From an uncultured Candidatus Binatia bacterium (GTDB lineage: Bacteria; Desulfobacterota; Binatia; UBA9968; JAJDTQ01), in assembly GCA_965215605.1 (NCBI GenBank), contig OZ244070.1, positions 1,248,001 to 1,312,000 of the forward strand: 64,000 nucleotides of DNA, in the 5' to 3' direction. The translations under genes and the position numbers were made by a program. Under the pieces are notes generated by a model. That model did no database searches. It was not told the origin of the DNA and saw nothing but the letters and a program-made list of their open reading frames with translations. Every line of letters begins with the position of its first letter. Position 1 is the first letter of the stretch. This document shows positions 11,691-28,176 of this stretch, piece by piece.

Positions 11691-12773
11691 CTAGTGTGGT
11701 GTCTGGTTAATTCGTTTAATAACGCTGGTGACGGAGTCAATGATGGCATCAGCGGACTTGGTCCAACGAAACGGCTTGGGATGTTGATTGTGCAGGTCGA
11801 GGTAATTTCGTATGGCTTTCTCCAGAGCGACCACGGAGCGGTAGGTGCCTCGGCGTAACTGGTGTTCGGACAAGGTTGCGAAGAAGCGCTCCACCAAGTT
11901 CATCCAGGAACTGTAGGTGGGGATGAAATGACAGTGGAATCGGGGGTGTCGTAACAGCCAATTCTTGACTTGGGCGGTCTTGTGGGTACCGTAGTTGTCG
12001 AGAATGAGGTGGACTTCCAAGGCGGCCGGGACCTGCGAGTCGATGTGGCGCAAGAAGGCGATGAACTCTTGGCTTCTGTGCCGGCGGTGCAGCTTGCCCA
12101 ACACTCGACCCGTGGCTACCTCCAGTGCGGCGAACAGCGTGGTGGTGCCATAGCGCCGATAGTCATGGGTCCGAGTCTCGGGTGTGCCGTAGTTCAGCGG
12201 TAAACCGGGTTGGGTACGGTCCAATGCCTGAATCTGGCTTTTTTCATCCACGCACAACACCAGCGCCTTGTCCGGCGGATTCAGATAAAGACCCACCACG
12301 TCCCGCACCTTGTCGATGAAGTGCGGATCGGTGGATAGCTTGAAGTTTCGCGACAGGTGAGGTTTGAGCCCGAATGCTCGCCATACACGATGAACGAAAT
12401 CCCGTGGCACATCCAGGTCCTCGGATAAACTCCGCACGCTCCAGTGCGTGGCATGCTTCGGCCGTCGATTCAGTGTCGCGTCCAACACTTCCTGCACCCG
12501 TATGTCGTTGTGCTTGCGCGGCTGGCCGCTTCGTACAGCATCGGACAGTCCCGCCAGTCGCTCTCGGGCGAACCGCCCCCGCCACTTCGACACCGTCTGC
12601 TGGCTCGTGTGGTGTCGCTTCGCCACCTCCTCCCCTGTGTAACCTCGCGCGCAATCCAAAATCACGCCCGCTCTCAGATGAAGACCCGCTCGCGTATTGC
12701 GCCGCCGGCTCCATCTCTCAAGCTCCGCCTTCTCTTCCTCACTCAAAACGATCCCTGCTGGTGGTCGTGCCAT
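11691..12773 (-). CDS. IS630-family DDE transposase
   Basis: HTH N-terminus, [34 protein letters not shown]; the stop codon uses the target TA. Confidence 0.95.
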
Positions 12774-12847
12774 GGTGCCTCCTTCACCCTTCTCCCCATG
12801 GTACTACACCCTGTATTGTTTTTCAACTAATTAATCGGACAGGATAC
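11694..12847 (-). mobile_element. IS630-family insertion sequence (1154 bp) inserted in CTAG with TA duplication
   Basis: CTAG at 11691-11694 and 12847-12850; imperfect terminal IRs GTGTGGTGTCTGGTTAATT / GTATCCTGTCCGATTAATT. Confidence 0.93.
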
Positions 12848-12953
12848 TAGAACGCTTTGTGGCCGCACTGCAGCCCCACGCCCGAATCGTGGCCCGGCGC
12901 ACGGTCTCGGAAACCGGACGCGAGCTCATCTGGTTTGAGAGGCCCGTACGCAA

Positions 12954-14564
12954 GTGAGAGCCACCCTCGCGGAATCGCTCCTGTGGGCCGGCGCTTCCCT
13001 GTGTGCTGCCCTGGCGATCGTGTGCGGTTCGGTCCTCGCCAATATCGACAGTATCGGGTTGGCAGACGTCGTGCGGCCGCTCGCAATCTTGGCCATCCTC
13101 GCGGTGCTTATGACTCTTGCGCTGATGGCGGTTTTGCCGCCCCTCGGCCGTGTGTTCCCCATGGCGCTTTACGCCTACTTCGCGTTCCATCCGATTGAGG
13201 CTCTGCTCCCTGACTTTGGATACGAACATATCGTGGCCGGAGCGGCGGTCGTTGTCGGCCCCTTGGCACTCCACCGCATCTTGCGTCGCGTTGATCGACT
13301 GCGCGGAGCCGCCGGTGGGCTTGCGGTTGCGGCAACCATGGCGGGTTCCTCCCTCGTGGCAATCGCACCTTCGATCCTGTATGACAGCGCCCCGGTCATA
13401 TCCCGGGACTTCCAGGACGAGACCCTGGTAGCGGTCGCGAGTCATCGCGGCACGACCGCGTCGCTTCCGGACATCATCTACGTGGTGCCCGACCGCTACG
13501 CGAGCGCGGCGACCCTCAAGCGGGAGTTCCAACTGGACAACAGCTCGTTTTATGCCGCGCTCGAAGCACGCGGATTCCGGGTCGCGAAGAATGCTCATGC
13601 CAACTATCACAAGACGTTTCAGTCGCTTGCTTCCACCCTGAACGGCGGCTACCTGGAGGGGTTCACCAATGCTTACGGTATTGGGAGCGACGAGCGGCGT
13701 CCCGCCTATGACACGATTGAAAACAATGTGGTTCAGCACCGGCTGCGCAAGCTGGGATACCGGTTCCACAACTACGGCAGCTGGTGGGAACCGACGCGCA
13801 TCAACCGTTGGGCGGACGTAAACGACACGGCCTCTGCGTTTCTGAACAATCTTTCCGAATTCGAGCGAGCCCTGATTTACCGGACGCTAGTGCCTAGTCG
13901 GTTTTCCGTCAGTTCCATTAGAAGAAGCGAATGCAACCGCATCCAACGCAAGTTGCAGCAATTGGGGGAGGCCGGCAACGGGCCGGAGCCGGTTTTCGTG
14001 TTCGCGCACACAATGGTGCCCCATGATCCCATCACAATGAACGCCGCTGGGCACTGCCTCGAACCGCCTGTGTTCTATACGCCCGGCAAAGCGAGGGCGT
14101 GGCGCGATTTCAAGGCCGCTTACGTAGAATATCTCAAGTTCTTCAACGCCGCGATGCTTCGGGTCATCGATCAGCAGATGGAGCGGCGCAAACAGGACGG
14201 CCGAGACCTCCTGTTCGTCATCCAATCTGATGAAGGGCCTTGGCCCCTAACCGGGCGCGGAGAAGGGCGGAACGTTGACTACGCGTCCTTCACACGGCGG
14301 GAACTTCGCATGAAAACAGGAATCATCAATGCCCTACGCATGCCCGGGGGCGAGGCCCCAGACTTTGCGTCCATCGCAACCCCTATCAACAACTGGCGGC
14401 TCATCTTCAACACGCTTGTGGGCACCAGGATGAAGATGTTGCCCCACCGGATCTACATCCACCCGTCCGGAAAGAACGTCTACCGATTCTGCGACGTGAC
14501 AGCCCTCGTCACCGAAGAGGAAATTGCCGACGGGGAACCGGCACCGATGCCGTGCGACGACTGA
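12954..14564 (+). CDS. Membrane-anchored sulfatase/alkaline-phosphatase-superfamily transferase
   Basis: N-terminal TM helices, PDIIYVVPDRY, TFQSLASTLN, FVFAHTMVPHDP and IQSDEG motifs; GTGA overlap with the restored methyltransferase stop. Confidence 0.8.
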   Translation: MRATLAESLLWAGASLCAALAIVCGSVLANIDSIGLADVVRPLAILAILAVLMTLALMAVLPPLGRVFPMALYAYFAFHPIEALLPDFGYEHIVAGAAVVVGPLALHRILRRVDRLRGAAGGLAVAATMAGSSLVAIAPSILYDSAPVISRDFQDETLVAVASHRGTTASLPDIIYVVPDRYASAATLKREFQLDNSSFYAALEARGFRVAKNAHANYHKTFQSLASTLNGGYLEGFTNAYGIGSDERRPAYDTIENNVVQHRLRKLGYRFHNYGSWWEPTRINRWADVNDTASAFLNNLSEFERALIYRTLVPSRFSVSSIRRSECNRIQRKLQQLGEAGNGPEPVFVFAHTMVPHDPITMNAAGHCLEPPVFYTPGKARAWRDFKAAYVEYLKFFNAAMLRVIDQQMERRKQDGRDLLFVIQSDEGPWPLTGRGEGRNVDYASFTRRELRMKTGIINALRMPGGEAPDFASIATPINNWRLIFNTLVGTRMKMLPHRIYIHPSGKNVYRFCDVTALVTEEEIADGEPAPMPCDD

Positions 14565-14608
14565 CCAGGATGCCGGGCTTGGTGGCGTTGGGGTTGTGAC
14601 TCCACAGG

Positions 14609-14713
14609 TAACCGTGTCGACCGTGGGGCGCCGGCACCCCCAACCGACTCCGGCATCCGCTTCACCGACACTGTGGACTCCCCTTGCACCGCTCAACCAT
14701 CGCCCAATGAACA
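14609..14713 (+). repeat. 105-bp direct repeat, copy 2
   Basis: Near-identical to 9779-9883. Confidence 0.9.
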
Positions 14714-14772
14714 GTCAACGCGACCAGCGCGCGACGGGGAGGCGTCTTCGCGCCACGGCTGCCAACGTCCAT
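14714..14772 (-). pseudogene. Truncated 5' stub of a flippase-like gene
   Basis: MDVGSRGA matches the MDVGHRGA start of the gene at 20830, with the same spacing after the ELPVW* stop. Confidence 0.6.
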
Positions 14773-14785: not shown

Positions 14786-15880
14786 TCAAGACCAGACAGG
14801 AAGCTCGGCCCAGATGCGGTAGCCCGCAAAGAAGTCAGCCAGTGCGCCTCCCCCCCGAATGGAGTGAACATGGCGAGCCGGCGGCTCAAGTTGGTCGCAG
14901 ATTTCCAGAGCGCATGAGGCGAAGGTGTCGCCCCGAAGGGTCACCTTAGCCAGATCCTCGGTCAGGGAGTCCACGAGGCCCATGCCGAGACGTTCCTGGT
15001 CGAAGTCGTGCAGGAGATCATGCACGTTGCGCTCCTGCCTGACCAAGGGTCGCCCGAAAGAGACACCCCAGCCGAGGTGATCCGCGATACGCTTGACAAT
15101 GAAGCTGGCGAAGATGTCGTCGTACCGACCCACTTTGGGCGACAGGAAGTACGCGGGAAGCACGGCGCGCGCCAAGGTGGTATTCTGCGAGTTGAAGGGA
15201 CTCCGTGCGCCGGGAGCCAGGAAAAAGTTGTGTTCGAGGCGGTAACGGATGACGTATACGGGATGGGCGAGGCGGGTGGCGGCGTCGATGTCGGGATCGC
15301 CGAGCCAGAACCCGGCGACGACAGCGACGGGCAGCGACAGCGGCACACTCGCCACGGGCGCAGATCCGTCGTCAAGGTCGGCCCGGGCAGCCATTCCATA
15401 TCCTCGCGGCACGAACTGATAGTTATTTGCCGTCGTGAGAAACCGGCATACGTTGAACCACTCGCCGGACTTCCCATACGCCGTCAGGTCAAGACGGCTA
15501 CCGGCGGCGGCGCTATGGGAGAAATAGTCCTTCTCGGCGATGAAGTTGTCGTCGTCGATGGTGACCACGACATCCGCACCGTCGCACGCCGCCTTGAGGA
15601 TGGCCACATTGCGTCGTTGTATGCAGTTCCAGGGCAGATGGGCGCGAAGTTCAGGCCAGGGAGAGAGAAAAGCCTCCTGGGCGGCAGGCCCCAAGTACTC
15701 GCACTCGACGCCGGTGTCGCTGGCGAGTCGGGCGCAGTAGTCGGGTGCCGCAGCGTTCGTCCCTCGATCCCCAGCGACGTAGATTTTGATTGTTCGACCA
15801 TGTTCAAGGGCGTCGCGCGCAAATCCGTGCAATGCCTCGGGGACGTGGATCGTGGTCGTGATCAGTGCGGTCGAGGGCAA
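14786..15880 (-). CDS. RGP/GT75 (STELLO-related) family protein; candidate NDP-sugar pyranose-furanose mutase
   Basis: ITTTI, RRNVAIL, TIDDDN, GFWLGDPDIDA and GRYDDIFASFIVKRIADHLG resemble plant RGP/UAM motifs; TTG start with a GGAG RBS. Confidence 0.7.
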   Translation of the reverse strand: MPSTALITTTIHVPEALHGFARDALEHGRTIKIYVAGDRGTNAAAPDYCARLASDTGVECEYLGPAAQEAFLSPWPELRAHLPWNCIQRRNVAILKAACDGADVVVTIDDDNFIAEKDYFSHSAAAGSRLDLTAYGKSGEWFNVCRFLTTANNYQFVPRGYGMAARADLDDGSAPVASVPLSLPVAVVAGFWLGDPDIDAATRLAHPVYVIRYRLEHNFFLAPGARSPFNSQNTTLARAVLPAYFLSPKVGRYDDIFASFIVKRIADHLGWGVSFGRPLVRQERNVHDLLHDFDQERLGMGLVDSLTEDLAKVTLRGDTFASCALEICDQLEPPARHVHSIRGGGALADFFAGYRIWAELPVWS

Positions 15881-16647
15881 CCTCGGCTCCCTTCTGTCGG
15901 CGCAACGATCAGACTGCGCACGGGCCTTGCTCGGGTGGATAGACCGATCCGGAAGTACCGTAGGTACTCCGTGGCCGGCATGTGGGTCGTTCCCTCCCGG
16001 CGCCTGCGCCAGTGTGTCTGGACCTCCGCCACCCGGGCGCCGCATCGCAGCGGCGTGACCAGCGCCTCGAAGAAGAACGCGTGGCCTGTCTCGCGCCACG
16101 CATAGCGACGCAGTTCCCGCGCTCGATAGAGCCTGAAGCCGAAGGTCATGTCGGTCAGCCTGACACCGTAGAGGGCCGAGAACATCAACTGAAACAGCCA
16201 GTTGCACACCCGCTTCAGCGGCGAGTAGTCGCCGAAGCGGCCACCGCCGAGCCAGCGGGACGTGGCGACGATATCCACGTCACCGACTCGCGCGCGTTCG
16301 ATCATCTCCGGTGCCGTTCCGGGGTGCGTTTCCAGGTCGGCCGCCATGAGCAGTATCCAGGGCGAACGCATCAGCGGGATGCATTCTCGATTTGCGCCGC
16401 CCGCGCCGCGGAGTTCCGTCTGTTCGTGATGGCGCACGATAGCTGGATGCACGGCTTCCAGTTCGGCGATCACCGCCCGACACGCCGGCGTGGTATGCGA
16501 CGCGATGCCGATCATGATCTCGTGGATGGCGTCAGCGTTTTCGCGGAGCAGGGTATCGACGGTTTCGCGCAGAGACCAGGTTTCATCGATTGCAGTGATG
16601 ATGACGCCCACGTCGGGAAGGGCGCGAGGCGGAGGAGCGTCAGCCAT
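15862..16647 (-). CDS. GT2 glycosyltransferase, polyprenyl-phosphate sugar synthase (DPM1-like)
   Basis: MAADLETHP (DxD-like), VATSRWLGGG and TDMTFGFRLY motifs. Confidence 0.85.
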   Translation of the reverse strand: MADAPPPRALPDVGVIITAIDETWSLRETVDTLLRENADAIHEIMIGIASHTTPACRAVIAELEAVHPAIVRHHEQTELRGAGGANRECIPLMRSPWILLMAADLETHPGTAPEMIERARVGDVDIVATSRWLGGGRFGDYSPLKRVCNWLFQLMFSALYGVRLTDMTFGFRLYRARELRRYAWRETGHAFFFEALVTPLRCGARVAEVQTHWRRRREGTTHMPATEYLRYFRIGLSTRARPVRSLIVAPTEGSRGCPRPH

Positions 16648-17596
16648 TTCGAACCATGGACTCGATCCAGCGATAGGTGGGGGCGAGACCGTCCTTGAGC
16701 AGGGTGGGCGGTTCCCAACCCAGCACCTCGCGCAGCAGCGTGTTGTCCGAGTTGCGGCCGCGCACTCCCTGTGGACCGTCAATATGCTCGACCGTGACGT
16801 TCCTTTTACCGCTTATGTCGATGATGATCTTGGCGAGACCGTTGATGGTGACCATCTCATCGGAGCCGAGGTTGAGCGGGTCGGCGTGGCCGGACTCCAT
16901 CACACGGTGCAGGCCCTCGATGCAATCGTCGATGTAGCAGAAGCTTCGAGTCTGCAGGCCGTCGCCCCATATCTCGATGCTGCCGCCGCTGCGGGCCATG
17001 GCGACCTTGCGGCACAGCGCGGCGGGCGCTTTCTCCCGGCCTCCGTCGAAGGTCCCGAGCGGTCCGTAGATGTTGTGGAAGCGGACGATGCGGGTTTCGA
17101 TGCCAAAATCCGCAGAGAAGTAATCGAGCGCCCGTTCAGCGATGAGCTTCTCCCATCCGTAGGCGTCCTGCGGCGCCGCCGGGTAAGCGTCCGCCTCCTT
17201 GAGCGGCGCTACGTCGGTCCGGGTCTGGAGCGACTCCGGGTAGACGCAGGCGGACGAGCTGAAGAGGTATCGGCGGACGCCGTTCTCCCGCGCGGCGTCC
17301 AGCGTATGGAGGTTGATGAGCGCGTTGTTCCGCAGGACGCGGGCGTGGTTGGACGACAGGTACCCCATTCCACCCATGTCCGCCGCGAGAGCATAGACCG
17401 CGTCAATGTCTCTCGTGGCTCGAAGGCAGTTCTCCCAACGCCGCAGGTCGAGCAGCTCGAACTCGTCGGCGTCGGAAACGGTGAACTCCGGTCGTTTGAT
17501 GTCCACACCGCGGACCCAGTGCCCAAGCCTCTTGAGGTGGGTGACGAGGTGGTGGCCGATGAAACCGCCGGCGCCGGTCACGAGAAATCGGTTCAT
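16640..17596 (-). CDS. GDP-mannose 3,5-epimerase-like extended SDR
   Basis: GAGGFIGHH, LAADMGGMG, SSSACVYP, PQDAYGWEK and GGREKAPAALCRK are GME-type signatures. Confidence 0.88.
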   Translation of the reverse strand: MNRFLVTGAGGFIGHHLVTHLKRLGHWVRGVDIKRPEFTVSDADEFELLDLRRWENCLRATRDIDAVYALAADMGGMGYLSSNHARVLRNNALINLHTLDAARENGVRRYLFSSSACVYPESLQTRTDVAPLKEADAYPAAPQDAYGWEKLIAERALDYFSADFGIETRIVRFHNIYGPLGTFDGGREKAPAALCRKVAMARSGGSIEIWGDGLQTRSFCYIDDCIEGLHRVMESGHADPLNLGSDEMVTINGLAKIIIDISGKRNVTVEHIDGPQGVRGRNSDNTLLREVLGWEPPTLLKDGLAPTYRWIESMVRNG

Positions 17597-17619
17597 GTCG
17601 CTTGTACCTCGGGTCAAGG

Positions 17620-19497
17620 TTAGGGGATACGCTGACGCAATACCCCATCCGCTCGCTGATCGCGAATCAGGTGGCAATGCAAGGGTAAAGCATCAGTGCC
17701 TTTGCCGTGAGTCGGCACACTGCCAAGCTCCTGCTCCAGGAACAACTGAAGGCTCCTGTCCGCAAAAGTAACCCCGCTCTCCCTCGGAGTCCAGGCCCCG
17801 TGAAGCAATTCATCGTACAGTCCGAGATTCACCCTGATTATCTCCTTGAACCGGTTCGCGCTCAGAAGCCGCTCACCGCCAGTGACCACACGGAGGCTGC
17901 GGAAGTAACGGTTCAACCCGGCGTCTACAAAGGCTTGTGATCGTGACGCGGTCGACTCGGCCAGTCCCGTCGGCCGAACGCGCACGTAGTGGCCCGGGCG
18001 CCATACCGTCACAGGCAAACTTGCCATGAACTTGTCGCCCAGACCCCAGACGTCGAGAAAATTCTGCTCAAGCCGGGCACTGTACGGTGTCATGCCAAGA
18101 TTGCAGACGTGGAAAGTCGCCTGCTTCGAGTCGCGAAGCAGAGAGCCGAGTCGCACCGTCACATCGTCCGGGTACGTGGTCCCGGCTCCCACGGACCGCC
18201 ACCAGACCGTAATCCCCGTCTTCGGATGCCACGCGGCTCTCTCGTTCGCAATCCCGGTCGGGTATGTCGCGAAATCCAGGACGGTCTCCGCGTAGACGAC
18301 CGGTCCTGTGAGTGGTGAGTGCGGCCACAGACCGATCCAGACAACCAGGGCGGTAATCGAGAGTGCGCGCAGGCATCGCCATCGTCCCGGTTCCAGTCGC
18401 CCGCGTAGGTGTGTTTCCCAGTGGCTGCTCATACCTGCAAGGAGAGCGATCAGTATGACGTATGGGACAGTAAAGAAGCGCCCGCCCATGTAGTCAGCCC
18501 CGACGAAGATAACATACAGCAGAGCCAACCCAATGGCAGCGGCTATGACTCGTGCTGGACCACGCCCAAACCAGAGCAACTGGGATCCGAAAAGGACCAC
18601 CATCATCACGGTGTCCTTGTGTATGGAGAAACGGTAATAGTCCAATGCAGACAAGAGACGGAACGCCAAGCCAGGAAGACCGGCGTCCGCCGGCAGCTTG
18701 GCGTAGGCCGAGGCCGGCAAGGGGAACCCGAAGTAGATAAGGGAGAACAGCGTCCAGAGGAAAAGCGGGGCCAGCATCCAGCCAATGGACCGAGTGAGTC
18801 CCTTCGCTCCCAAGCGTGCGCGGTTGTCCCAGAGCGCCCAGGCAGCAAGGGGCCAGGCGAGCATGACGAAGTCGTGACGATAGAGCGGCGCGACAGCGAT
18901 CAGGGCAACGAACCAGCGCCAATGGAACCGGTCCGGAGGCTCCCCGTGGCGCAGATCCGGATACATCCGCAGCCAGATCAGGACAATGGCCGCGGCCAGC
19001 ACATGGCCGATCGGGTTCTCCTGACCGAACCACGAGTAGTCGAAGTGGGCCTTGGACGCGAACAGCAGGCCGAGTGCCAGGAACCACGCTCGGACGTCCT
19101 TGCCGGCCAGCACCCAGAGGAGCCAAAGCAGCGCGGCGTTGCAGGTCAGCGCGACGATGGCGTGTAGGATAAAAGGGTCCGACGTGAGGACGCGGAGCGG
19201 CAAAAGGACGAAGAAGTAGATCACTGAGGTGCTGAGAAAGGAGCGTTCGTACAGGTTGAACCGAATGCCGTTTCCGGCAAACACCTGCTCTACCTGCCGC
19301 AGGGTGATGAAGTAGTCGTCGGAGAGCCAAGCGCATTTGAGGAGCGTGACAAAGTAGACTACCACGCCAAGTGCCACCAACCAGTGGGCTCCCGGCGCCA
19401 GCCAACCGTTGCTCTTGGTGGGAGTGGGCACTCTCGCAACCTTGCTTGATCTCACGGTTTTCTGAACGTCAAGCCAGGCTGATGCCCAGGTGACCAA
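17620..19497 (-). CDS. AftB-like GT-C furanosyltransferase
   Basis: AWLSDDYFITLR...GNGIRFNLYERS resembles the AftB DD-motif loop; GADYMGGRFF, IANER and RPGHY; many TM helices. Confidence 0.7.
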   Translation of the reverse strand: MVTWASAWLDVQKTVRSSKVARVPTPTKSNGWLAPGAHWLVALGVVVYFVTLLKCAWLSDDYFITLRQVEQVFAGNGIRFNLYERSFLSTSVIYFFVLLPLRVLTSDPFILHAIVALTCNAALLWLLWVLAGKDVRAWFLALGLLFASKAHFDYSWFGQENPIGHVLAAAIVLIWLRMYPDLRHGEPPDRFHWRWFVALIAVAPLYRHDFVMLAWPLAAWALWDNRARLGAKGLTRSIGWMLAPLFLWTLFSLIYFGFPLPASAYAKLPADAGLPGLAFRLLSALDYYRFSIHKDTVMMVVLFGSQLLWFGRGPARVIAAAIGLALLYVIFVGADYMGGRFFTVPYVILIALLAGMSSHWETHLRGRLEPGRWRCLRALSITALVVWIGLWPHSPLTGPVVYAETVLDFATYPTGIANERAAWHPKTGITVWWRSVGAGTTYPDDVTVRLGSLLRDSKQATFHVCNLGMTPYSARLEQNFLDVWGLGDKFMASLPVTVWRPGHYVRVRPTGLAESTASRSQAFVDAGLNRYFRSLRVVTGGERLLSANRFKEIIRVNLGLYDELLHGAWTPRESGVTFADRSLQLFLEQELGSVPTHGKGTDALPLHCHLIRDQRADGVLRQRIP

Positions 19498-19646
19498 GAG
19501 GTCGATGTTCCGTTTGCCGGTGTCATTCGTGGGTCATGGGGACTGGCACGGATACCTTGTCAGAGCCGTTTTCTGCCTAACCTGATCGGCCCAACTACAT
19601 CTTGGCACATGTAACAGTTCATGCCGGCCTCGCCAACTCGTTGCTT

Positions 19647-19703
19647 GCCGGGTTCCGGGCCCTCAAGGAGCGTTTGGCAGCGGACACCGAGTCGACGACG
19701 TAG
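19647..19703 (+). pseudogene. Stray fragment of an Rpn C-terminal tail
   Basis: Encodes AGFRALKERLAADTESTT*, nearly identical in DNA to the ends of the Rpn copies at 24561 and 26284. Confidence 0.85.
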
Positions 19704-19849
19704 CCTGCAGCCGTTAAAAGTCATTCACCCGTTCGTTGACTATCCGACACGTCCAGCCAAACCGGTCCGCGGTCGCCACCACATTTGCTACGAACAGTCG
19801 GAGATAGTCTACCCACCTCTCGGATCCAAAGGCCGCCGCTACCTGTTCG

Positions 19850-20830
19850 TCACGCGGTGGAACCCATGCAACGGCGGGACAGATGCAGAAAAAACGGCAC
19901 GCTCAGCGCCGCGGAGTACCAAAGCGTGCTCACGCGCATGATTCCGACCATCGCCATGGCGCTTGCAGTCGAGTTGCCGGCGACACCGGCGATGAGCAGG
20001 GCCATCGTGAGTTCCTGACTGCCAATGCCTCCGGGGAGGAAGGTGATGACTCCCGCGACGTTGCCGAGGCCAAGGGCCGCCATCGCCGCCCGTAGCGGTA
20101 GCTCTCCTCCGATCACCGGCATGAGCATGTGCAATGCGACGGCCTCCATGCTCCATGCAAGCAGGCTCAATGACAGGAGCCTGACCAAGAGGGCCGGCTT
20201 CAGCAGCAGCGCGACGTTGCGGCAGACGGACAGCAGCAGCGCGAACCGACGCGGTCTTCGGCGGCCGGTTGCTGCCCAGAGTGCCTTGATCGCGCGTCGT
20301 GCCCAGCCCGGCAACGCCATGAGCATCACCAGTGCCGAGGCTGCAGCCAGACTCGGCGTCGCCAACCACCCGGGACCCGCGCCGAGCCCCAACCCCGCGC
20401 CCGCGAAAAGCAGGAGGGCGCAGAGATCGAGCAACCGATCACAGATCAGCAGTGGCAGGGTGCGGCGGTATCTCACCCGCCACAGGCGCCAGAGCACCCA
20501 ACTACGCCACAGCTCTCCGATGCGTCCAGGCGTGAGGTTCATGAGGAAGCCGCCGACATAGACCGTCGCGAGGCTGTTGGCCCGGACATCGAGGCCCGCC
20601 GTGTGAGCCAGCAACAACCACCGTGCCACCCGTACCGCAAAGCCGGCGGACGCAAAGGCCATAAAGGCCGGAACGACCCACCAAGGGGTCGCCGCAAGGA
20701 TAAGGCGCAGATCGGCTCTGAATGCGAGCAGGGACAGAGCCGCCAGCGCATAGACACCCAACAGGACTCCCAGCCAACGACCTGCGCGCGACCGGAAGGC
20801 GTCTCCGGCGCCACGGTGGCCAACGTCCAT
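19850..20830 (-). CDS. Lysylphosphatidylglycerol-synthase TM-domain (UPF0104/AglD2-like) flippase
   Basis: RVARW, TPGRIGE, DRLLD and PGGIGSQE motifs; polytopic membrane protein. Confidence 0.85.
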   Translation of the reverse strand: MDVGHRGAGDAFRSRAGRWLGVLLGVYALAALSLLAFRADLRLILAATPWWVVPAFMAFASAGFAVRVARWLLLAHTAGLDVRANSLATVYVGGFLMNLTPGRIGELWRSWVLWRLWRVRYRRTLPLLICDRLLDLCALLLFAGAGLGLGAGPGWLATPSLAAASALVMLMALPGWARRAIKALWAATGRRRPRRFALLLSVCRNVALLLKPALLVRLLSLSLLAWSMEAVALHMLMPVIGGELPLRAAMAALGLGNVAGVITFLPGGIGSQELTMALLIAGVAGNSTASAMAMVGIMRVSTLWYSAALSVPFFLHLSRRCMGSTA

Positions 20831-20843
20831 CTTCGGATGTACC

Positions 20844-21216
20844 TCAGTGCCAGACAGGAAGCTCGGCCCAAATGCGATAACCCGAGAAAAGGGCGGCCAG
20901 TGCACCTTCACCCTCCGTTCGCACCTCCCCGCCAGTGGAGTGGACTTGGCCAGCCGGCAGCTCGAGTTGATCGCAGATTTCAAGAGTACATGCGGCGAAG
21001 GTGTGGTGGCCGATGAAGCCGCCGGCGCCGGTCACGAGAAATCGGTTCATGTCGCTTGCACCTCGGCTCAAGGTTAGTTCAGGCGATACGCTGGCGCAAC
21101 AGGACACGCCCTCCCCTCCCTCGGGTCCAGGCGCCGTGTAACAACTCGTGGTACAGCCCGAGATTAGCCCTGACAATCTCCTTGATTCGGTTCGTGCTGA
21201 GAAGGGGCTCGCCGCC
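20844..21216 (-). pseudogene. Collapsed paralogous operon remnant (AftB-like 3' end, then epimerase 5' end fused to RGP-like 3' end)
   Basis: MNRFLVTGAGGFIGHH joined directly to TFAACTLEICDQLE...YRIWAELPVWH*; upstream DNA encodes GGEPLLSTNRIKEIVRANLGLYHELLHGAW. Confidence 0.85.
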
Positions 21217-21244
21217 CCTGGATTCCAGCTTTCGCGGGAACGAC
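21217..21244. repeat. CTGGATTCC..TTTCGC.G.AA.GAC palindromic repeat element; second copy at about 24752-24779
   Basis: ctggattccagctttcgcgggaacgac and ctggattccccctttcgccgaaatgac, each upstream of an Rpn gene. Confidence 0.65.
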
Positions 21245-21987
21245 GCTTTGAGGTGGCGGTGCCGTTTCCCGTTCGAGTGAAGTCCTGACCGGGACTTTAC
21301 TGCGGAACTGCCCGAAACCCCGTGGACGACTCACCCGGACCGCAACCTGAACCTAAAGTTTCGCGGCGCTCTGCCGATTCCTGTCTACAGGACAGGGATG
21401 TTTCCAATCCCCGTCACGCTCGTTCACGTCGGGGAGGGTCCTGTATGGCGGCGGAAATCGAACACCCGCATGACCGGCTGTTCCGCGCCGTCTTCTCCGA
21501 CGCCGCGGAAACCGCCGACTTGCTCCGCTCGGCCCTGCCACTGGACGTCTCGGACAAGGTCCATTGGGACAGCCTCCGGCTCATCGACGGCACCTTCATC
21601 GACAACGCCCTGCGGGAGAGCGAAACCGATCTGCTCTTCGAGGCCGGCTATGGGGAGGAAGTACGCCCGGTGCGGCTCTATCTGCTGTTCGAGCACCAAT
21701 CGACTCCCGATGCGTGGATGCCGTTCCGGTTGCTCAAGTATTGCTTCCGCATCTGGGATGCGGAACTGCGGGACGAGCCCGGGCTCACGAAACTGTCGCC
21801 CATCGTACCGTTGGTATTGTACCAAGGGAGCCGGCGGTGGCAGCATTCTACGGAGTTTGCGGACCTGTGTTGGTGGCAACTGTAAATTTCCCATTTATGG
21901 CAATCGAAAACTGCACACATTGATTGCTGGCGTGAGTGCTCGGGTCCAGGCTGTTGGCAAGACCAACAGGAACGGAGCGGAGCACAG

Positions 21988-23010
21988 ATGCACGGATGGG
22001 AGACGAGGATGCTGCTTAGGCACTATCTGGAACGGGGTGTAACGAAGACGGAGCTGTCGCGGCGGTTCGGGGTGAGTCGCCGGACGATCCACGAGTGGAT
22101 CGAGACAGGACAGTTGGACCGGGATCTGTCGGGAGGCGGGACGCGATACAGGGCGAGGCCGCCGGTGTGTCACAAGCTGGATCCGTACAAGGGGATCATC
22201 GAGGCGCGACTGGAGGAGTATCCGCGGTTGTCGGCGAAGCGGCTGTACGACGAGGTACGAGGGGCAGGCTACACGGGCGGGTACGTCCGTGTGAGGGAGT
22301 ACGTTCGGGCGGTGCGGCCAAGGGAGCCGGCGGAGGCGGTGGTGCGGTTCGAGACGCCGGCGGGACGGCAGGGGCAGGTGGACTTTGCGACGTTCACGCT
22401 TCCCTGGGGGCGGCGGCATGCTTTGGTGATGGTTCTGAGCCACTCCCGGCTGTTGTGGCTGCGGTTTTACCGGCGGCAGACGATGGCAGTGCTGATCGAA
22501 GGGCTGGAGAGCGCCTTCGAGTGCTTCGGCGGGGTGCCGCAGGAGCTCTTGTTCGACCAGATGCGGACGGTGGTGCTGTCGGACGGCCGCGCGGGCGGGG
22601 GCGAGTTGGTGTTGAACGCGGACTTCTTGCGGTTCGCCGCGCACTGGGGGTTCCGGCCTCGGGCATGCCGGCCGTACCGAGCCCAAACCAAGGGCAAGGT
22701 GGAGCGGCCGATCCGCTACATCCGCAACAACTTCTTCTACGGCCGGGAGTTCCTGAACGACGAGGACCTGAACGAGCAGGCGCGCTTGTGGCTTGAGGGA
22801 ACCGCGAACCGGCGCTGGCACGGCACCACCAGGGAGCGCCCGGTGGACCGCTTCGAGCGCGACGAGCAGCAGGCGCTGCTGCCGTTGGCGAGTTGCCCGT
22901 ATCGGCGCCTTGGTATGCACAGGCTTCCACAGCAAGCCCGGCGCCCCCTGCCCGTCACCGTAGACGTCGAGCGGCGCTCGCTCAGGGTCTACGCGGAGGC
23001 GGTGTCATGA
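21988..23010 (+). CDS. istA: IS21 transposase IstA
   Basis: HTH, RFETPAGRQGQVDF, LFDQMRT and QTKGKVER motifs. Confidence 0.95.
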   Translation: MHGWETRMLLRHYLERGVTKTELSRRFGVSRRTIHEWIETGQLDRDLSGGGTRYRARPPVCHKLDPYKGIIEARLEEYPRLSAKRLYDEVRGAGYTGGYVRVREYVRAVRPREPAEAVVRFETPAGRQGQVDFATFTLPWGRRHALVMVLSHSRLLWLRFYRRQTMAVLIEGLESAFECFGGVPQELLFDQMRTVVLSDGRAGGGELVLNADFLRFAAHWGFRPRACRPYRAQTKGKVERPIRYIRNNFFYGREFLNDEDLNEQARLWLEGTANRRWHGTTRERPVDRFERDEQQALLPLASCPYRRLGMHRLPQQARRPLPVTVDVERRSLRVYAEAVS

Positions 23011-23804
23011 GGGCCGAGGCAGGCAACCGGCGCGACCGGCTGCGGGCGATGCTGGCGGATCTGAAGATGCCGGGCGCGCTCGAGGCCGTCGACGACGTCC
23101 TGGCCCAGGCCGACAGCGGGGCGGCCACCGCCAGCGAGGCTATCGAGCAGTTGTTGGACGCCCAGATCGGGTTGCGCAACAACCGCCGCCTCCAGACCGC
23201 CATGCGCTCGTCGCGGCTGCCGGCCGTGAAGACCCTGGCCCAGTTCGACTTCGCCTTCCAGCCCAGCATCAAGCGCGAGCAGATCGAGAGCCTCCACGAA
23301 CTCGGCTTCCTGGATCGCCGCGAAAACGTCATTTTTCTCGGGCCGCCCGGGGTCGGCAAGACTCATCTGGCTATCAGCCTAGCCGTCGCCGCCGCCGAAT
23401 CCGGCCGCCGCGTCTACTACGGAACCCTGGCCGGACTGATCGAGTCGCTGCTGGAGGCCAAGGCCGCAGGCGAGCTCTCCCGCCGGCTGCGGGTCCTCAC
23501 CTATCCCGCCTTGCTCTTGGTGGACGAGATCGGCTACCTGCCGGTTACCCAGGACGGCGCCGTGCTCTTCTTCCAGCTCATCAACGCCAGGCACGAACGC
23601 GCCTCCACCGTGCTCACCTCCAACAAGGGCTTCGAGGACTGGGGCAGCGTCCTCGGCGACGAGGTCATGGCTGCTGCCCTCATCGACCGGCTCCTCCACC
23701 ACTGCCACATCGTCAACATCCGCGGCAACAGCTACAGGATGCGCGAACACCGCAACCTCATGCGGTCAGCCGACGAGCAGCCTCGCCAGGGAGGCGTCCT
23801 GTGA
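23007..23804 (+). CDS. istB: IS21 helper ATPase IstB
   Basis: GPPGVGKTHLA, LLVDEIGY and DRLLHH motifs; ATGA overlap with istA. Confidence 0.95.
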   Translation: MRAEAGNRRDRLRAMLADLKMPGALEAVDDVLAQADSGAATASEAIEQLLDAQIGLRNNRRLQTAMRSSRLPAVKTLAQFDFAFQPSIKREQIESLHELGFLDRRENVIFLGPPGVGKTHLAISLAVAAAESGRRVYYGTLAGLIESLLEAKAAGELSRRLRVLTYPALLLVDEIGYLPVTQDGAVLFFQLINARHERASTVLTSNKGFEDWGSVLGDEVMAAALIDRLLHHCHIVNIRGNSYRMREHRNLMRSADEQPRQGGVL

Positions 23805-24312
23805 GCGCCATGTCCTGCCGATCTGCAACCCGTCATGGCCTGGACTCCGCTCGCTCCGCTCCCTCCGTCCAGACCATGACCCATGAACCGAACCAACCGC
23901 AGAGCGTCACTTCTGCACGGACGCTCTTCTCGAAAGTGTGCAGTTTTCGATTGCCAAATGTGTGCAGTTTTCGGTTGCCATTGACAACCTGTTCCGAGAG
24001 GAGGTTCGGGGATGGCCGTGGGTGCCCCGGTTCGAGCACCTGCTGTTGGACCAGACGGAGATGGAGCCCGGCGGTGTGGAGGGTGGAGTGGCGGGCCGCA
24101 TCGCGCAGTTGTTGATGATGGCCGCGTCCGGAAGGCATGCTCGGGAGGCGTTGGAAGGGGCTGCGGGGCTGCTGGCGTCGCTGGTTCCGGGTGGCGCGGG
24201 AAGCCCATTTGGGATATTCGTTCTATATGTGATGGCAACACAGGACCGCGCGACGTGGGAGACCTTCACCACTGCGCTGAAGCGGCGTGAAAGCGGCCAG
24301 GAAGGAGACACC

Positions 24313-24561
24313 ATGGCATATGCTCACGAACTTCTCGCGGAAGGCCGGGAGCAGGGCCTCGAAGAAGGCATGCAACAGGGCATGCAGCAGGGCATGCAAC
24401 GGGGAATGCTACAGGGCGTGCAACGCGGCAAGGTGGAGACGGTGGAGGGCTTTTTGAAGGCCGGGGCGACATGGGAGATGATCGAGTCGGCCACCGGGCT
24501 CGACGAAGCCGGGTTCCGAGCCCTCAAGGAGCGGTTGGCGGCGGACACCGAGTCAAAGTGA
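24313..24561 (+). CDS. Putative internally initiated small Rpn C-terminal protein (RpnS-like), 82 aa
   Basis: Strong SD GAAGGAGA 4 nt before an in-frame ATG (MAYAHELL...). Confidence 0.65.
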   Translation: MAYAHELLAEGREQGLEEGMQQGMQQGMQRGMLQGVQRGKVETVEGFLKAGATWEMIESATGLDEAGFRALKERLAADTESK

Positions 24562-24994
24562 CCGGGAACCGTTCACTGGCTCCAACACAGGACGTTGGCG
24601 GGACGACCCGCTGTCTGGAATACCCCTTTTGCCGTCTCGCTGACCCGTAAACCGGGATCACCTCACTTATCGGCGTTAGTGCAGTTGGCCGCCACGATGC
24701 AGCCGGCGCAACAGCGCTGCCACCCTGTCCCTTGCAACTGCCATTTGCGCCCCTGGATTCCCCCTTTCGCCGAAATGACCGTTAGGGGTGGCTGCGCGCT
24801 GGGGTGCCCGGACGCTTCCCCGTTGGAGTGGGGTCTTGGCACAGACTGACCGGCGGAAACACCCGAGCCCTCCTCGACGTGTAGCCCGGACCAGCACCCA
24901 ACCTAAAGTTCCGCCGCACGGTGCCGATTCACAAGTACAGGACAGGGATGCTTCCAATCCCCGTCACTCTCGTTCACGTCCGGGAGGGTCCTGT

Positions 24995-25927
24995 ATGGCG
25001 GCAGAAATCGAACACCCCCATGACCGGCTGTTCCGTGCGGTCTTCTCCGATGCCGCCGAAACCGCCAGCCTGCTCCGCTCGGCCCTGCCACGGGACGTCT
25101 CGGACAAGGTCCATTGGGACAGCCTCCGGCTCATCGACGGCACCTTCATCGACGACGCCCTGCGGGAGAGCGAAACCGATCTGCTCTTCGAGGCGGGCTA
25201 TGGGGACAAAATATACCCGGTGCGGCTTTACCTGCTGTTCGAGCACCAATCGACTCCCGATGCGTGGATGCGGTTCCGATTGCTGAAGTATTGTTGCCGC
25301 ATCTGGGATGCGGAACAACGGGACGAGCCCGGGCTCACGAAATTGTCGCCCATCCTGCCGTTGGTCTTGTACCAAGGGAGCCGAGAGTGGCAGCATTCTA
25401 AAGAGTTTGCGGACCTGTTCCGAGAGGAGGTTCGGGGATGGCCGTGGGTGCCCCGGTTCGAGCACGTGCTGTTGGACCAGACGGAGTTGGAGCCCGAAAG
25501 CGTGGAAGGCGGGGTGGCGGGCCGCATCGCGCAGTTGTTGATGATGGCCGCGGCCGGAAGGCATGCTCGGGCGGCATTGGAAGGGGCTGCGAGGCTGCTG
25601 GCGTCGCTGGGTTCGGGTGGCGCGGGAAGCCCATTTGGGATATTCGTTCTATATGTGATGGCAACACAGGACCACGCGACGTGGGAGACCTTCACCACGG
25701 CGCTGAAGCGGCGTGAAAGCGGTCAGGAAGGAGACACCATGGCATATGCTCACGAACTTCTGGCGGAAGGCCGGGAGCAAGGCGCGCAACACACCAAGGT
25801 GGAGATGGTGGAGGGCTTTTTGAAGGCCGGAGTGACCTGGGACGTGATCGAGTCGGCCACCGGGCTCGACGAAGCCAGGTTCCGGACTCTCAAGGAGCGT
25901 CTGGCAGCGGACACCGAGTCAAAGTGA
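24995..25927 (+). CDS. Rpn-family nuclease/putative transposase, copy 2 (intact); internal RpnS-like start at 25739
   Basis: Same motifs as copy 1; GGAGGG RBS; 310 aa. Confidence 0.93.
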   Translation: MAAEIEHPHDRLFRAVFSDAAETASLLRSALPRDVSDKVHWDSLRLIDGTFIDDALRESETDLLFEAGYGDKIYPVRLYLLFEHQSTPDAWMRFRLLKYCCRIWDAEQRDEPGLTKLSPILPLVLYQGSREWQHSKEFADLFREEVRGWPWVPRFEHVLLDQTELEPESVEGGVAGRIAQLLMMAAAGRHARAALEGAARLLASLGSGGAGSPFGIFVLYVMATQDHATWETFTTALKRRESGQEGDTMAYAHELLAEGREQGAQHTKVEMVEGFLKAGVTWDVIESATGLDEARFRTLKERLAADTESK

Positions 25928-26352: not shown

Positions 26353-28176
26353 TTATCGATTCGGAGCGACTCCTGGATGAACCCGATACAGGGCCGTTCC
26401 GTCCTGTTCCGTGACGGGGACAAGCCACCAGGGCGGATCGCCGGAGGCAAGCTGGTCACTGAGAAAGGCCGGTCGATCTCCATAGGCCGGCACGAACGCG
26501 TACTTCTGGCAGAACAGGATCGCATCGACGCCAAGCGCCCTTACGGTGGCAAGCGCCTCCTCCTCGGTGCCGGCGAAGATGCGGCGGTTGTTCGACAGCC
26601 CCTCCACGTTGCGATGATAGGGCGCGGCGAGAACCTTGTGGCGGGTGAGGAACAGGATGCGTGGCCCCACGTCGATGGGCGCCGCAATCGTTCGAACGCC
26701 GGCGCCCAAACCGGCGGGATCGGTAAGATCGCCAACCACGGACAGGACATCGCATTCAGCGTTCCCCCTATCCGCCGCCCGGTTCGAGCCCGGCAATAGC
26801 CGCGGCGGCACAACTACCGCGAGCATCAACAACAACGGTATACAGAGCCGTAACCCGATCCTCGCCGGCACGCTTTCCAAATCATCCACCCGTTTGTTGA
26901 CTGCCGCGGCTGGCAGAACCAGGGCGATGCTCGCCACCAGTCCGGCATAAGCTCCCCCCCGGATTTGCCAGGCGGCCAGCACTACGCCTGAAAGGACCAG
27001 CAGTGCCATGGCGGGCCAGCGCAGATCCGTCCGGTCCGAGGCGCGCATCCAGGACCAGCCCACGGCCACCAGTGCGGCGAGTGGCAGACTGACGGCGGAG
27101 ACGGCGGTACCCGGTTCCCGTTGGAAAAGACCCGCAAGCGATTGCGCTTCGGCCACTTTGTCGAGCCAGAAGCCTATTTCGTCGGAAAAGCTGGCATGAG
27201 GACTCCCCGCGCATTGGGGAAAGGCGGCCGCCACCGCCGCTAGCCCGACCATGCCCACGGCCGCCACCGTGGCGAATCGCACGGGCCAACGCGCCTCGGG
27301 CCGCAGGCGCCCGAAAGCCGTGGCAGCGGCCCCCGAGGCCAGGACCATGCCGCCCAGCGCCAAGTGAGGAAGGGACAGGCGATCACACGCGACGGTCGCC
27401 CACGCGGCCGGAGGCAGAGTGAGGAACAAGAGGATGACCGAGGTCGCGGCCAAGGCTCCGCCGAAACATGTCAACGCCGTGGCCGCCGGTCGGCCGCCCA
27501 ACACCCACGCCAGGCACAGGATGGTGGTGGCGGCGCCCAGGAACGGCAGGGTTTCGAGACCCACGGCCAGCGACGCGCCGCCTGCGATGCCGAGCCCCAC
27601 GGCCGCCCATGATCTTCCAGGCGCCAGGGACCGCAAGAGAAATCCGGCGCCCAGGGCGGTCAACACCAATTGCAGGCCGTGATGGTCGACCCGTCCCGGC
27701 AACATTTGCAGCAAGGGGATCACCAGAGCTGGCGTTGCCAGCACCGCGGCCGGCAATGCGGCGGCCCGGTCCGGGATCAGCGGGACGGCGGCCCAGAGGA
27801 ACAGCGCGGCAAACACTCCACCGAGCAGAGGCGGCGCCACCAGAACCGCAAAATCCACCGCCCTTGTGCGGCCGAGCCACGGTTCGGCCAGGGTGATGAC
27901 CGCGGCCAGGGGCAGATCGGCGAGCCGCGACCAGTGCATGTCCACGCCGGCCGGCGGATTCAGGCGCCGCTGCACCATGTCGTTCCAGCCCTGGCCGTCG
28001 ATCCAGTCGAGGACCTGCACCGCGCGCATGAAGTCGTCCGGACCCGCCAGCAGTCTGGCCGCTCCGCCGTCCCGGCCGAGACCGAAAGGCAACAGGGCCG
28101 CGAAGCACAGCACGGCGGCCAACGCATAGGGCAGGAAACCGGAAAGACGGCGCTCGTGCACAGGCGGTTCAGTCAT
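26353..28176 (-). CDS. STT3/AglB-like GT-C membrane glycosyltransferase
   Basis: GPDDFMR, MHWSRLADLP, RVDHH and AAPYHRN motifs; many TM helices plus a soluble C-terminal domain. Confidence 0.7.
   Translation of the reverse strand: MTEPPVHERRLSGFLPYALAAVLCFAALLPFGLGRDGGAARLLAGPDDFMRAVQVLDWIDGQGWNDMVQRRLNPPAGVDMHWSRLADLPLAAVITLAEPWLGRTRAVDFAVLVAPPLLGGVFAALFLWAAVPLIPDRAAALPAAVLATPALVIPLLQMLPGRVDHHGLQLVLTALGAGFLLRSLAPGRSWAAVGLGIAGGASLAVGLETLPFLGAATTILCLAWVLGGRPAATALTCFGGALAATSVILLFLTLPPAAWATVACDRLSLPHLALGGMVLASGAAATAFGRLRPEARWPVRFATVAAVGMVGLAAVAAAFPQCAGSPHASFSDEIGFWLDKVAEAQSLAGLFQREPGTAVSAVSLPLAALVAVGWSWMRASDRTDLRWPAMALLVLSGVVLAAWQIRGGAYAGLVASIALVLPAAAVNKRVDDLESVPARIGLRLCIPLLLMLAVVVPPRLLPGSNRAADRGNAECDVLSVVGDLTDPAGLGAGVRTIAAPIDVGPRILFLTRHKVLAAPYHRNVEGLSNNRRIFAGTEEEALATVRALGVDAILFCQKYAFVPAYGDRPAFLSDQLASGDPPWWLVPVTEQDGTALYRVHPGVAPNR

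Follow-up and report, generated by a model that had tools for sequence, protein, structure and literature searches.

A candidate gene cluster for lipid-linked L-galactofuranose transfer in an uncultured Candidatus Binatia bacterium

Introduction

What would an operon do in a diderm bacterium when it joins an epimerase and a mutase-like protein of the kinds found in antibiotic biosynthesis to a relative of a mycobacterial arabinofuranosyltransferase? This question is raised by a cluster of five minus-strand genes in the genome of an uncultured Candidatus Binatia bacterium (assembly GCA_965215605.1). The window, meaning the whole stretch of 64,000 nt that was analysed, covers positions 1,248,001-1,312,000 of the forward strand of contig OZ244070.1. 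The genes are designated by letters: A for a GT75 protein, B for a family 2 glycosyltransferase (GT2), C for a GDP-mannose 3,5-epimerase (GME), D for a type C glycosyltransferase (GT-C) and E for a PF03706 membrane protein. One full set is present, arranged as E-D-C-B-A, with E upstream of D.

An original prediction, made from the letters of the DNA, had described the cluster as a route for L-galactofuranose (L-Galf) glycosylation. Its parts were given as an AftB-like GT-C, a GME-like short-chain dehydrogenase/reductase (SDR), a GT2 of polyprenyl-phosphate (DPM1-like) type, an RGP/GT75-like protein, and a flippase-like gene. The family membership of the five proteins, the conservation of their catalytic residues and their co-occurrence across genomes were analysed here by computation. 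Statements taken from PMC9937993, PMC12041299, PMC6678494, PMC11127046 and PMC5898192, as well as those on TfpW, refer to parts of the respective sources.

Results

Gene cluster and proposed pathway

The host genome comprises 4.06 Mb in 8 contigs and is 97% complete. LpxC (240.9 bits) and BamA (631 bits) were found in it with scores above their cut-offs, and the host is a diderm with lipopolysaccharide (LPS). A bifunctional ManC was also found (TIGR01479, 623 bits, cut-off 373), so GDP-mannose is available to the cell.

All five genes were found to be real, their coordinates differing from those first given by no more than a few codons, and their codon composition was coding-like (Table 1). 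C and B overlap by 8 nt and B and A by 19 nt, D and C are separated by 23 nt, and the gap between E and D is about 418 nt. The open reading frame (ORF) of D extends to 19497 (625 aa), while the GTG at 19431 is favoured as the start by the length of homologues (601-603 aa) and by the consensus of the alignment. A simple promoter scan of the region returned no promoter-like site, and the number of terminator-like sites (5) was that expected by chance (5.0).

The cluster is best explained as a three-component module for extracytoplasmic glycosylation that receives its nucleotide sugar from a branch of two enzymes. GDP-D-mannose supplied by ManC would be converted by C to GDP-beta-L-galactose (GDP-L-Gal), whose ring would then be contracted by A, as a GT75 enzyme of the MtdL kind, to give GDP-L-Galf. 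B, as a peripheral GT2 of the DPMS/ArnC/GtrB kind, would transfer L-Galf to polyprenyl (undecaprenyl) phosphate at the cytoplasmic face of the membrane. E would either flip the lipid-linked sugar or serve as a membrane anchor for B, and D would place L-Galf on a periplasmic acceptor, probably an envelope polysaccharide. Each chemical step, the order of the steps and the acceptor are inferred, and the surface glycan named as acceptor in the original prediction is a guess. The course as a whole, from GDP-mannose through GDP-L-Gal and GDP-L-Galf to a polyprenyl-P-L-Galf that is flipped and used by the GT-C, is considered fairly probable, with substantial room for doubt.

The stereochemistry of such a donor can be outlined. 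beta-D-Galactofuranose and alpha-L-arabinofuranose share the same ring configuration; in the mirror image, alpha-L-Galf corresponds to beta-D-arabinofuranose (D-Araf) carrying an additional hydroxymethyl group at C5. Because inversion is the rule for DPMS-type GT2 enzymes, polyprenyl-P-alpha-L-Galf would be expected from a GDP-beta-L-furanose. This product is the homologue of decaprenyl-P-beta-D-Araf, the donor of AftB, and seen in this way a link to AftB is a natural one.

Epimerase

Protein C was matched by phmmer in the PDB to plant GME over about 312 residues, with E 2.7e-111 for entry 8sg0 and E 3.7e-110 for the Arabidopsis enzyme 2c59; the next SDR family followed at E 1e-28. Eight key residues of GME are given in PMC8787198, namely the triad S143/Y174/K178, the acid/base pair C145/K217, and R306, R243 and N203. 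In the alignment to 2c59, all eight were identical in C by motif position. A role of bacterial GME in LPS synthesis is put forward in PMC6678494 only as a hypothesis, as far as the part of that source used here extends.

GT75 mutase candidate

Protein A matched the Pfam family RGP with 33.8 bits (cut-off 23.8), and STELLO reached 16.2 bits (cut-off 27.8). The only solved relatives found by sequence in the PDB were entries of MtdL (E 9.3e-38, residues 3-323). An AlphaFold model of A based on 24 sequences had a pLDDT of 92.4, and in Foldseek it was matched to MtdL (7xpr) with E 8.5e-32, TM 0.87/0.85, an rmsd of 3.1 Å and an identity of 30-31%. For rice UAM2 the TM value was 0.62.

Residue roles in MtdL were taken from PMC9937993 and compared in a family alignment of A with 24 sequences. 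According to that source, Arg159 is the proposed nucleophile, Asp260 the proposed base, Asp195 a catalytic residue and His287 a ligand of Mn2+. The DDD motif, N112, R159, D195, S228/Q229, R257, D260, R289, H292, R90, T13, I15 and D40 of MtdL were found to be identical in A, and all of them apart from R90 were listed as invariant in 24/24 family members. In the numbering of A, the DDD motif, Arg159, Asp195 and Asp260 correspond to D109-D111, R159, D197 and D255.

The retained T13 and I15 lie on the guanine side of the MtdL site. At position 86, the family of A carries a small residue, Cys or Ser, and not the Asp of the UDP-using plant enzymes; when this plant-type Asp was placed in MtdL, GDP binding was abolished (PMC9937993). 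The sequence of A places it, at full length, in a separate bacterial branch of GT75 enzymes, the Gln-type (named for Gln282, see below); its substrate is most likely a GDP-sugar, and mutase activity is probable.

The relatives of A are numerous. Among 1.84 billion proteins, 2110 cluster representatives were retrieved at E <=0.001, 1042 at <=1e-10 and 241 at <=1e-30, whereas MtdL and Hyg20 were the only characterised bacterial GT75 members as of 2023 according to the available part of PMC9937993. Two natural fusions of GT75 were also encountered: P0183 (742 aa) carries an N-terminal NAD-dependent sugar epimerase/dehydratase (SDR) domain, and P0180 (570 aa) a C-terminal methyltransferase domain.

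GT2 and flippase-like protein

Protein B matched PF00535 with 42.8 bits. Its best NCBIfam matches were AglJ and dolichyl-phosphate hexose transferase, far under the equivalog cut-offs (51 vs 325 bits), and a single-sequence phmmer search of the PDB with B gave no match. When a family profile of eight homologues (A3) was compared with the PDB, DPMS 5mlz was found at E 3.2e-16 over positions 3-229 of 238, followed by three ArnC entries (E 2.1e-10 to 3e-9) and GtrB (E 9e-6). The top matches were all polyprenyl-phosphate glycosyltransferases, and they were nearly full-length, with the C-terminal acceptor-loop region R-x-x-G-x-S included.

Protein E contains six hydrophobic segments and matched PF03706 with 101.8 bits (cut-off 33.4) and the flippase-like domain TIGR00374 with 48.4 bits (cut-off 43.2). 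According to part of PMC5898192, archaeal AglD glycosyltransferases carry the PF03706 domain at their C-terminal end. A preprint, seen in part, describes fusions of PF03706 with family-A and family-B glycosyltransferase domains, and literature abstracts link MprF-like flippases to glycolipid synthesis by GT2 enzymes. A search for longer proteins returned no fused B-E form, which is weak evidence. The role of E, flipping of the polyprenyl-phosphate sugar or anchoring of B, is inferred.

AftB-type GT-C

Protein D had no Pfam match, and a single-sequence phmmer search against the PDB returned only noise. The sole single-sequence signal came from NF041481, the model for AftB, and was weak (E 1.8e-4, residues 51-113). 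The link to AftB became visible only by family profile and fold search. A protein search with D yielded only 54 relatives at E <=1e-5; four of the distant relatives bear the name arabinofuranosyltransferase in their source.

The family profile of D (A1) matched AftB in the PDB at E 8.6e-41 (143 bits, profile positions 9-482). This was the sole significant match, the other three chains listed having E >=0.15. A model of D based on 37 sequences had a pLDDT of 86.8 and a pTM of 0.89. In Foldseek, AftB (9dlf/9dlh) was the best match (E 5.5e-11, TM 0.60-0.62), followed by ArnT (E 8.5e-5, TM 0.42-0.47). VIA-align gave Z 22.8 and an rmsd of 3.5 Å for D against AftB over 486 residues (30-572 of the model), with the next family at Z 15.9, and the fold alignment takes in the periplasmic cap domain.

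In AftB, D62 of the DD motif is the nucleophile, R221 and R372 bind phosphate, and T91, E172 and T274 contact the donor sugar, as given in part of PMC12041299. D62, T91, E172, R221, T274 and R372 correspond to D61, T90, E160, R207, S263 and R340 of D (numbering of the 625-aa ORF), and D61, R207, R340 and T90 were invariant in 37/37 aligned sequences. On profile, model and residues, D is a genuine, though distant (16-17% identity), AftB-type enzyme.

The assignments of the original prediction were upheld for all five genes: the AftB-like GT-C by profile, fold and donor-site residues, the GME-like SDR by its match to the Arabidopsis enzyme and the 8/8 identical residues, the RGP/GT75-like protein by MtdL and the RGP and STELLO scores, the polyprenyl-phosphate type of the GT2 by DPMS, ArnC and GtrB, and the flippase-like gene by PF03706.

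Conservation of the cluster across genomes

In a scan with one genome per species, 39 loci encoding a relative of A were collected and searched with the five window proteins by tblastn at E <=1e-5 (some loci were re-run at 1e-2). C (74-93% identity), B and A were found together in 14 of these loci (L001-L013 and L015). D was also present in 13 of the 14 and was not found in L006, where the sequence extends about 5 kb upstream. E was present in 10 of the 14, and B, D and E occurred together in 10 related loci. The contiguous order D-C-B-A-E was observed in nine of the 39 loci (L002-L004, L007-L010, L012 and L013). Four of the 14 loci gave no match to E: in L001, L006 and L011 the contigs end 0.6-1.3 kb past A, while L015 extends 3.1 kb past A. 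The five-gene neighbourhood, expected to be conserved, does recur in other genomes.

The 14 loci with C, B and A come from metagenome-assembled genomes (MAGs) titled Candidatus Binatia, Pseudomonadales, Ca. Azotimanducaceae and Gammaproteobacteria, and those closest to the window are from Binatia (83-88% DNA identity). In a whole-genome search, A was found in 5/27 other genomes of the genus and in 0/33 from the other two families of the order, and D was found in exactly the same five of these 60 relatives. The recurrence of the gene set and the co-occurrence of A and D lie far beyond chance. Additional GT-C-like genes (PMT_2, DUF6311) were seen on the flanks of the cluster in the Gammaproteobacterial loci.

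A maximum-likelihood tree of 37 mutases placed the 15 GME-linked rows in one clade (100/100 support), within which Binatia and Gammaproteobacteria were not separated. Together with the insertion sequence (IS) genes flanking the window cluster, this mixed clade points to horizontal spread.

The sister of the GME-linked clade was locus L036, titled Ca. Zeuxoniibacter. It encodes a GDP-L-fucose synthase (427 bits, cut-off 500), a Gmd fragment, a GT2 (59% identity), a mutase (53%) and a PF03706 protein. L-Fucose (L-Fuc) is 6-deoxy-L-galactose. The presence of a fucose synthase in the place of GME matches the dual specificity of MtdL and Hyg20, both of which accept L-Gal and L-Fuc (PMC9937993).

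Loci L016, L018 and L031, titled uncultured Gammaproteobacteria, Patescibacteria group and Ca. Harrisonbacteria, carry a GT2, an SDR and a mutase in a row. In L018 and L031 this row is preceded by a membrane protein of 592 or 528 aa, which matches the N-terminal 200 columns of the D profile, DD motif included (hhalign 94.6-94.7%, E 6e-8). The SDRs of the three loci lack the Cys/Lys pair of GME; they were accordingly rejected as GME, and the sugar there probably differs.

Another 15 mutase rows formed a separate clade, which takes in loci L021, L024, L029 and L032, tree rows L022-L030, and L037. By tblastn, a B-like GT2 was absent in 14/15 and a GT-C in 15/15 of these. Their titles include Alphaproteobacteria, Melainabacteria, Elusimicrobiales, Akkermansia, Mailhella and Phascolarctobacterium, with short branches between them. 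In the four annotated loci (L021, L024, L029 and L032) the mutase stands among genes for a GHMP kinase, a nucleotidyltransferase-HAD protein, a GT4 and an RmlD-like reductase. This neighbourhood suggests that the mutase family also serves cytoplasmic pathways, and the clade looks like a different, cytoplasmic furanose pathway spread across phyla.

Two mutase copies were seen in one Gammaproteobacterial MAG (L014 and L039). One stands alone by a TraG-like conjugation gene, and the other is partial and lies by a B-like GT2.

Alternative explanations

Several observations weigh against the proposed pathway. The host is uncultured, and the cluster in the window is rearranged and ringed by insertion sequences. 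In the related loci, a conserved target (acceptor) gene was not seen around the cluster. We know of no PF03706 protein that flips a polyprenyl-phosphate sugar. GME also yields GDP-L-gulose (PMC6678494), and the sugar could therefore differ from L-Gal. To these points are added the substitutions in A and the features of B that follow.

In A, the Mn2+ ligand His287 of MtdL is replaced by Gln282, and Gln stands at this position in 24/24 family members. Asp87 of MtdL is Ile87 in A (Ile, Val or Leu across the family), and the guanine-contacting Asn42 is Gly (Lys elsewhere in the family). The D87N and D87S mutants of MtdL were inactive, while active plant UAMs have Ser at the Asp87 position, and the plant protein RGP5, which lacks both His287 and Arg257, was inactive (PMC9937993).

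These substitutions, along with the gulose output of GME, speak for an alternative in which the module is the same and the GT75 protein is not a working mutase but, for example, a self-glycosylating RGP-like protein. The lipid donor would then carry a pyranose, L-galactopyranose or L-gulose. However, the remaining catalytic and sugar-binding residues are conserved in A, among them the nucleophile Arg159 and the base Asp260, and the invariance of Gln in the family indicates that the position is under selection and not in decay; Gln282 may still bind the metal. The GT75 gene is moreover kept beside the GT2 in MAGs of Binatia, Pseudomonadota and the Patescibacteria group, and the partner GT-C belongs to the one solved family using a furanose lipid donor. 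This alternative is judged unlikely, although it deserves to be kept in mind.

In B, the DADLQ motif of DPMS-type enzymes reads AADLE, so the first Asp of DxD is missing. Across the family, the second Asp is invariant, the first is replaced by Ala, Ser or Cys, and Gln by Glu. B also lacks any hydrophobic segment (KD >=1.6), whereas another GT2 in the window (28169-29242) has two. Synthases of the polyprenyl-phosphate type without a transmembrane (TM) segment do exist, as in the case of eukaryotic DPM1.

If the missing TM segment is given weight, B could be an ordinary Leloir GT2 that places L-Galf straight on a glycan or metabolite, as in A201A biosynthesis. GDP-L-Galf would then be consumed in the cytoplasm, and some other process would involve the GT-C and the PF03706 protein. 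The 15/37 mutase tree rows without a GT-C at the locus, four annotated ones of which lie beside GT4-type transferases, agree with such a scheme. On the other hand, the best solved relatives of the B profile are polyprenyl-phosphate transferases, aligned near full length up to R-x-x-G-x-S. D and A have exactly the same distribution across genomes and are translationally coupled in one operon, and family scans of the window showed no natural-product genes nearby. Cytoplasmic consumption is thus regarded as improbable.

The GT-C might instead use another lipid donor, such as the polyprenyl-P-D-Araf associated with AftB and TfpW, with the L-Gal genes adjacent by chance. Against this stands the order D-C-B-A, which is kept in 13 loci. 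Model NF008978, which we take to be the decaprenyl-phosphate phosphoribosyltransferase of the first step of the D-Araf lipid pathway, had no match in the 97% complete host genome, and a control search exceeded the cut-off only in Corynebacterium glutamicum. Although AftB itself uses a decaprenyl-P-D-Araf donor, with retention (PMC12041299), and D-Araf glycosylation is known in the Gram-negative Pseudomonas aeruginosa (TfpW), a different donor for D is held to be very improbable. The route through polyprenyl-P-L-Galf is the reading with the best support.

Rearrangement and mobile surroundings

Remnants of a further gene copy lie upstream of E. In the first, directly upstream, an in-frame fusion joins ~17 codons from the start of a C copy to ~45 codons from the end of an A copy. 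Its C part is identical to C, and the spacer upstream of it is the same too. The second remnant matches residues 511-570 of D with 48% identity and abuts a YhgA-like transposase gene.

The position of these remnants indicates that an ancestral D-C-B-A-E unit was duplicated or recombined and that one copy was gutted. The claim that the cluster had originally been followed by a flippase-like gene is confirmed by them and by the nine loci of 39 in which A is followed by E.

Comparable events were seen elsewhere. In L001 and L005, a truncated D (from residue ~182) is followed by C, B and A and then by a full D, with the flippase-like gene of L005 following after another 7 kb. The cluster has thus been rearranged repeatedly in Binatia-labelled genomes. 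The DDE_3 transposase gene of the window shows 97% DNA identity to a stretch of L002.

That the cluster is a decaying, functionless relic of a mobile island, as the gene remnants, the flanking IS21, DDE_3 and YhgA-like transposase genes and its presence in only 5/27 other genomes of the genus might suggest, is very improbable, because the five ORFs are intact and full length, with 78-93% identity to the nearest loci (L002, L003 and L005), and the overlapping starts and stops are retained.

Logan contigs from four runs were fragmentary, and none spanned a gene junction. A Logan contig of run X1 (depth 6.9, with 25 letters on the shorter side) links 19647 to 21212. This join omits the flippase-like gene and the remnant ORF, and loose ends at 19647 and 19693 were found in X1 and X4. 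On this weak evidence, the join may be a strain variant.

Discussion

Comparison with known systems

The closest parallel to the nucleotide-sugar branch is the pair MtdM/MtdL of A201A biosynthesis, with Hyg20 of hygromycin A, which likewise combines a GME-type epimerase with a metal-dependent, flavin-free GT75 mutase (PMC9937993). A shares with MtdL the fold (TM 0.87), the DDD motif, the nucleophile Arg, two catalytic Asp and the Ser/Gln/Arg of the sugar site. It differs in its identity of 30-31%, in Gln for the Mn ligand His and in Ile for Asp87. While MtdL is encoded in an actinomycete antibiotic cluster, A stands among envelope genes of a diderm (GT2, GT-C and flippase-like). The FAD-dependent CDP-fucofuranose mutase of Campylobacter (PMC12369002) was rejected as a precedent, being of the flavin type and unrelated.

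D shares with AftB (GT89), the mycobacterial terminal beta-(1->2)-arabinofuranosyltransferase, the DD motif, both phosphate-binding Arg and the Thr/Glu/Thr(Ser) contacts. In contrast to AftB, it is found in a Candidatus Binatia diderm or a Gammaproteobacterium, at 16-17% identity, and its predicted donor is a hexofuranose derived from a GDP-sugar, where that of AftB is D-Araf derived from phosphoribosyl pyrophosphate (PRPP).

The general layout resembles the GtrA/GtrB/Gtr* systems for glucose and the pentofuranose systems of Citrobacter youngae, in which a lipid-phosphate sugar synthase, a flippase candidate and an extracytoplasmic GT-C act together (PMC11127046). The systems of C. youngae consist of PPPRS, a MATE flippase and a GT136 GT-C and use PRPP-derived donors (PMC11127046). 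Here, the predicted donor is a ring-contracted hexofuranose, the GT2 has no TM segment, PF03706 stands in place of GtrA, SMR or MATE, and an AftB-like GT-C in place of GT136. The terms 'mutase', 'galactofuranose', 'hexofuranose' and 'GT75' do not occur in PMC11127046.

The best profile and NCBIfam matches relate B to DPMS, ArnC, GtrB and AglD/AglJ, and the PF03706 domain of AglD parallels the pairing of B and E (PMC5898192). B differs from DPMS, ArnC, GtrB and AglJ by the missing first Asp of DxD, the absence of TM helices and the score of 51 against an equivalog cut-off of 325 bits. TfpW of P. aeruginosa, likened here by its description in part of the source, shares a furanose of the same ring configuration, a periplasmic GT-C and a Gram-negative host. 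It differs in that its D-Araf comes from the PRPP pathway and its target is a pilin.

Significance

As a wider proposal, polyprenyl-P-L-Galf would be a new lipid-linked donor, a hexofuranose counterpart of DPA, the arabinan donor of mycobacteria. It would be made by ring contraction of a GDP-sugar instead of from PRPP and used by AftB-type GT-Cs outside Actinobacteria. The window would then be one of a broader, so far unrecognised group of 'furanose three-component systems', each with a Gln-type GT75, a GT2 without TM segment, an AftB-like GT-C and a sugar set by the SDR. This wider proposal is tentative, with slightly more doubt than belief attached to it. The swappable SDR would be GME, GDP-fucose synthase or another enzyme, in MAGs titled Binatia, Gammaproteobacteria and Patescibacteria group, and the systems seem to move horizontally.

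The original prediction had also stated that no description of a GME and GT75 pair in envelope glycosylation was known. This held for the open full-text literature, with subscription journals outside its scope and a prior remark there possible. L-Galf in bacterial envelope glycans was not met in a full-text literature search on that sugar, and among the literature matches listed there was no link between an RGP-type protein and a polyprenyl-linked GT-C.

If the proposed pathway is true, L-Galf, so far known from the antibiotic A201A, is built into a bacterial envelope, and a large uncharacterised branch of GT75 gains a function. Neither lipid-phosphate furanose donors nor AftB-type transferases would remain a speciality of Actinobacteria, and an epitope resembling D-Araf would be reached by a route that bypasses the PRPP/DprE pathway. 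The distribution, patchy and flanked by IS genes, is suggestive of a trait for surface variation. Possible roles lie in phage or host recognition, if the arabinosylation of pilin, as described in part of the source on that system, is taken as an analogy. The enzymes could also serve the synthesis of GDP-furanoses and furanosylated glycans.

Neighbouring genes and further observations

The coordinates of the five genes, the two remnants and the mobile and addiction genes are given in Table 1.

Table 1. Features of the cluster and its surroundings in the 64,000-nt window
Feature	Position	Strand	Details
A: MtdL-like GT75, predicted GDP-L-galactopyranose/furanose mutase	14786-15880	-	364 aa, TTG start
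B: GT2 without TM segment, predicted polyprenyl-phosphate L-Galf synthase	15862-16647	-	261 aa, ATG start
C: GDP-mannose 3,5-epimerase	16640-17596	-	318 aa, ATG start
D: AftB-type (GT89-like) GT-C	17620-19431	-	603 aa from GTG 19431
E: PF03706 (LPG_synthase_TM / MprF-flippase-like) membrane protein, predicted flippase or membrane partner	19850-20830	-	326 aa, ATG start
Remnant chimeric ORF, C start and A end, directly upstream of E	20844-21053	-	tblastn, frame translation
Remnant of diverged C-terminal part of D	21124-21321	-	tblastn, frame translation
Mobile/addiction genes	11691-12773, 21322-25927, 29276-30147		DDE_3 transposase, IS21 istA/istB, two YhgA-like transposases, PIN/FitA-like toxin-antitoxin pair

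A window-specific stretch (~12254-14721) stands where relatives have the sequence that follows A. It holds a plus-strand ORF of 536 aa (12954-14564), convergent with the cluster, with coding-like GC3 and four N-terminal hydrophobic segments. This ORF was considered as a sixth component and rejected, as it had no homologue in the 39 loci and no match to a Pfam or NCBIfam family.

The second GT2 of polyprenyl-phosphate type in the window (28169-29242, minus strand) is AglJ-like (TIGR04182, 192.6 bits), and its two hydrophobic segments are C-terminal. It overlaps the gene of a 607-aa protein without known family (26353-28176), and the two may form another two-gene periplasmic glycosylation pair. 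The 607-aa protein was rejected as a second D-like GT-C (hhalign probability 1.5%). A protein of 829 aa (5636-8125, minus strand) combines an N-terminal PMT_2 (GT-C) part with C-terminal TPR repeats, and its gene adjoins those of a sigma-54 activator and a histidine kinase.

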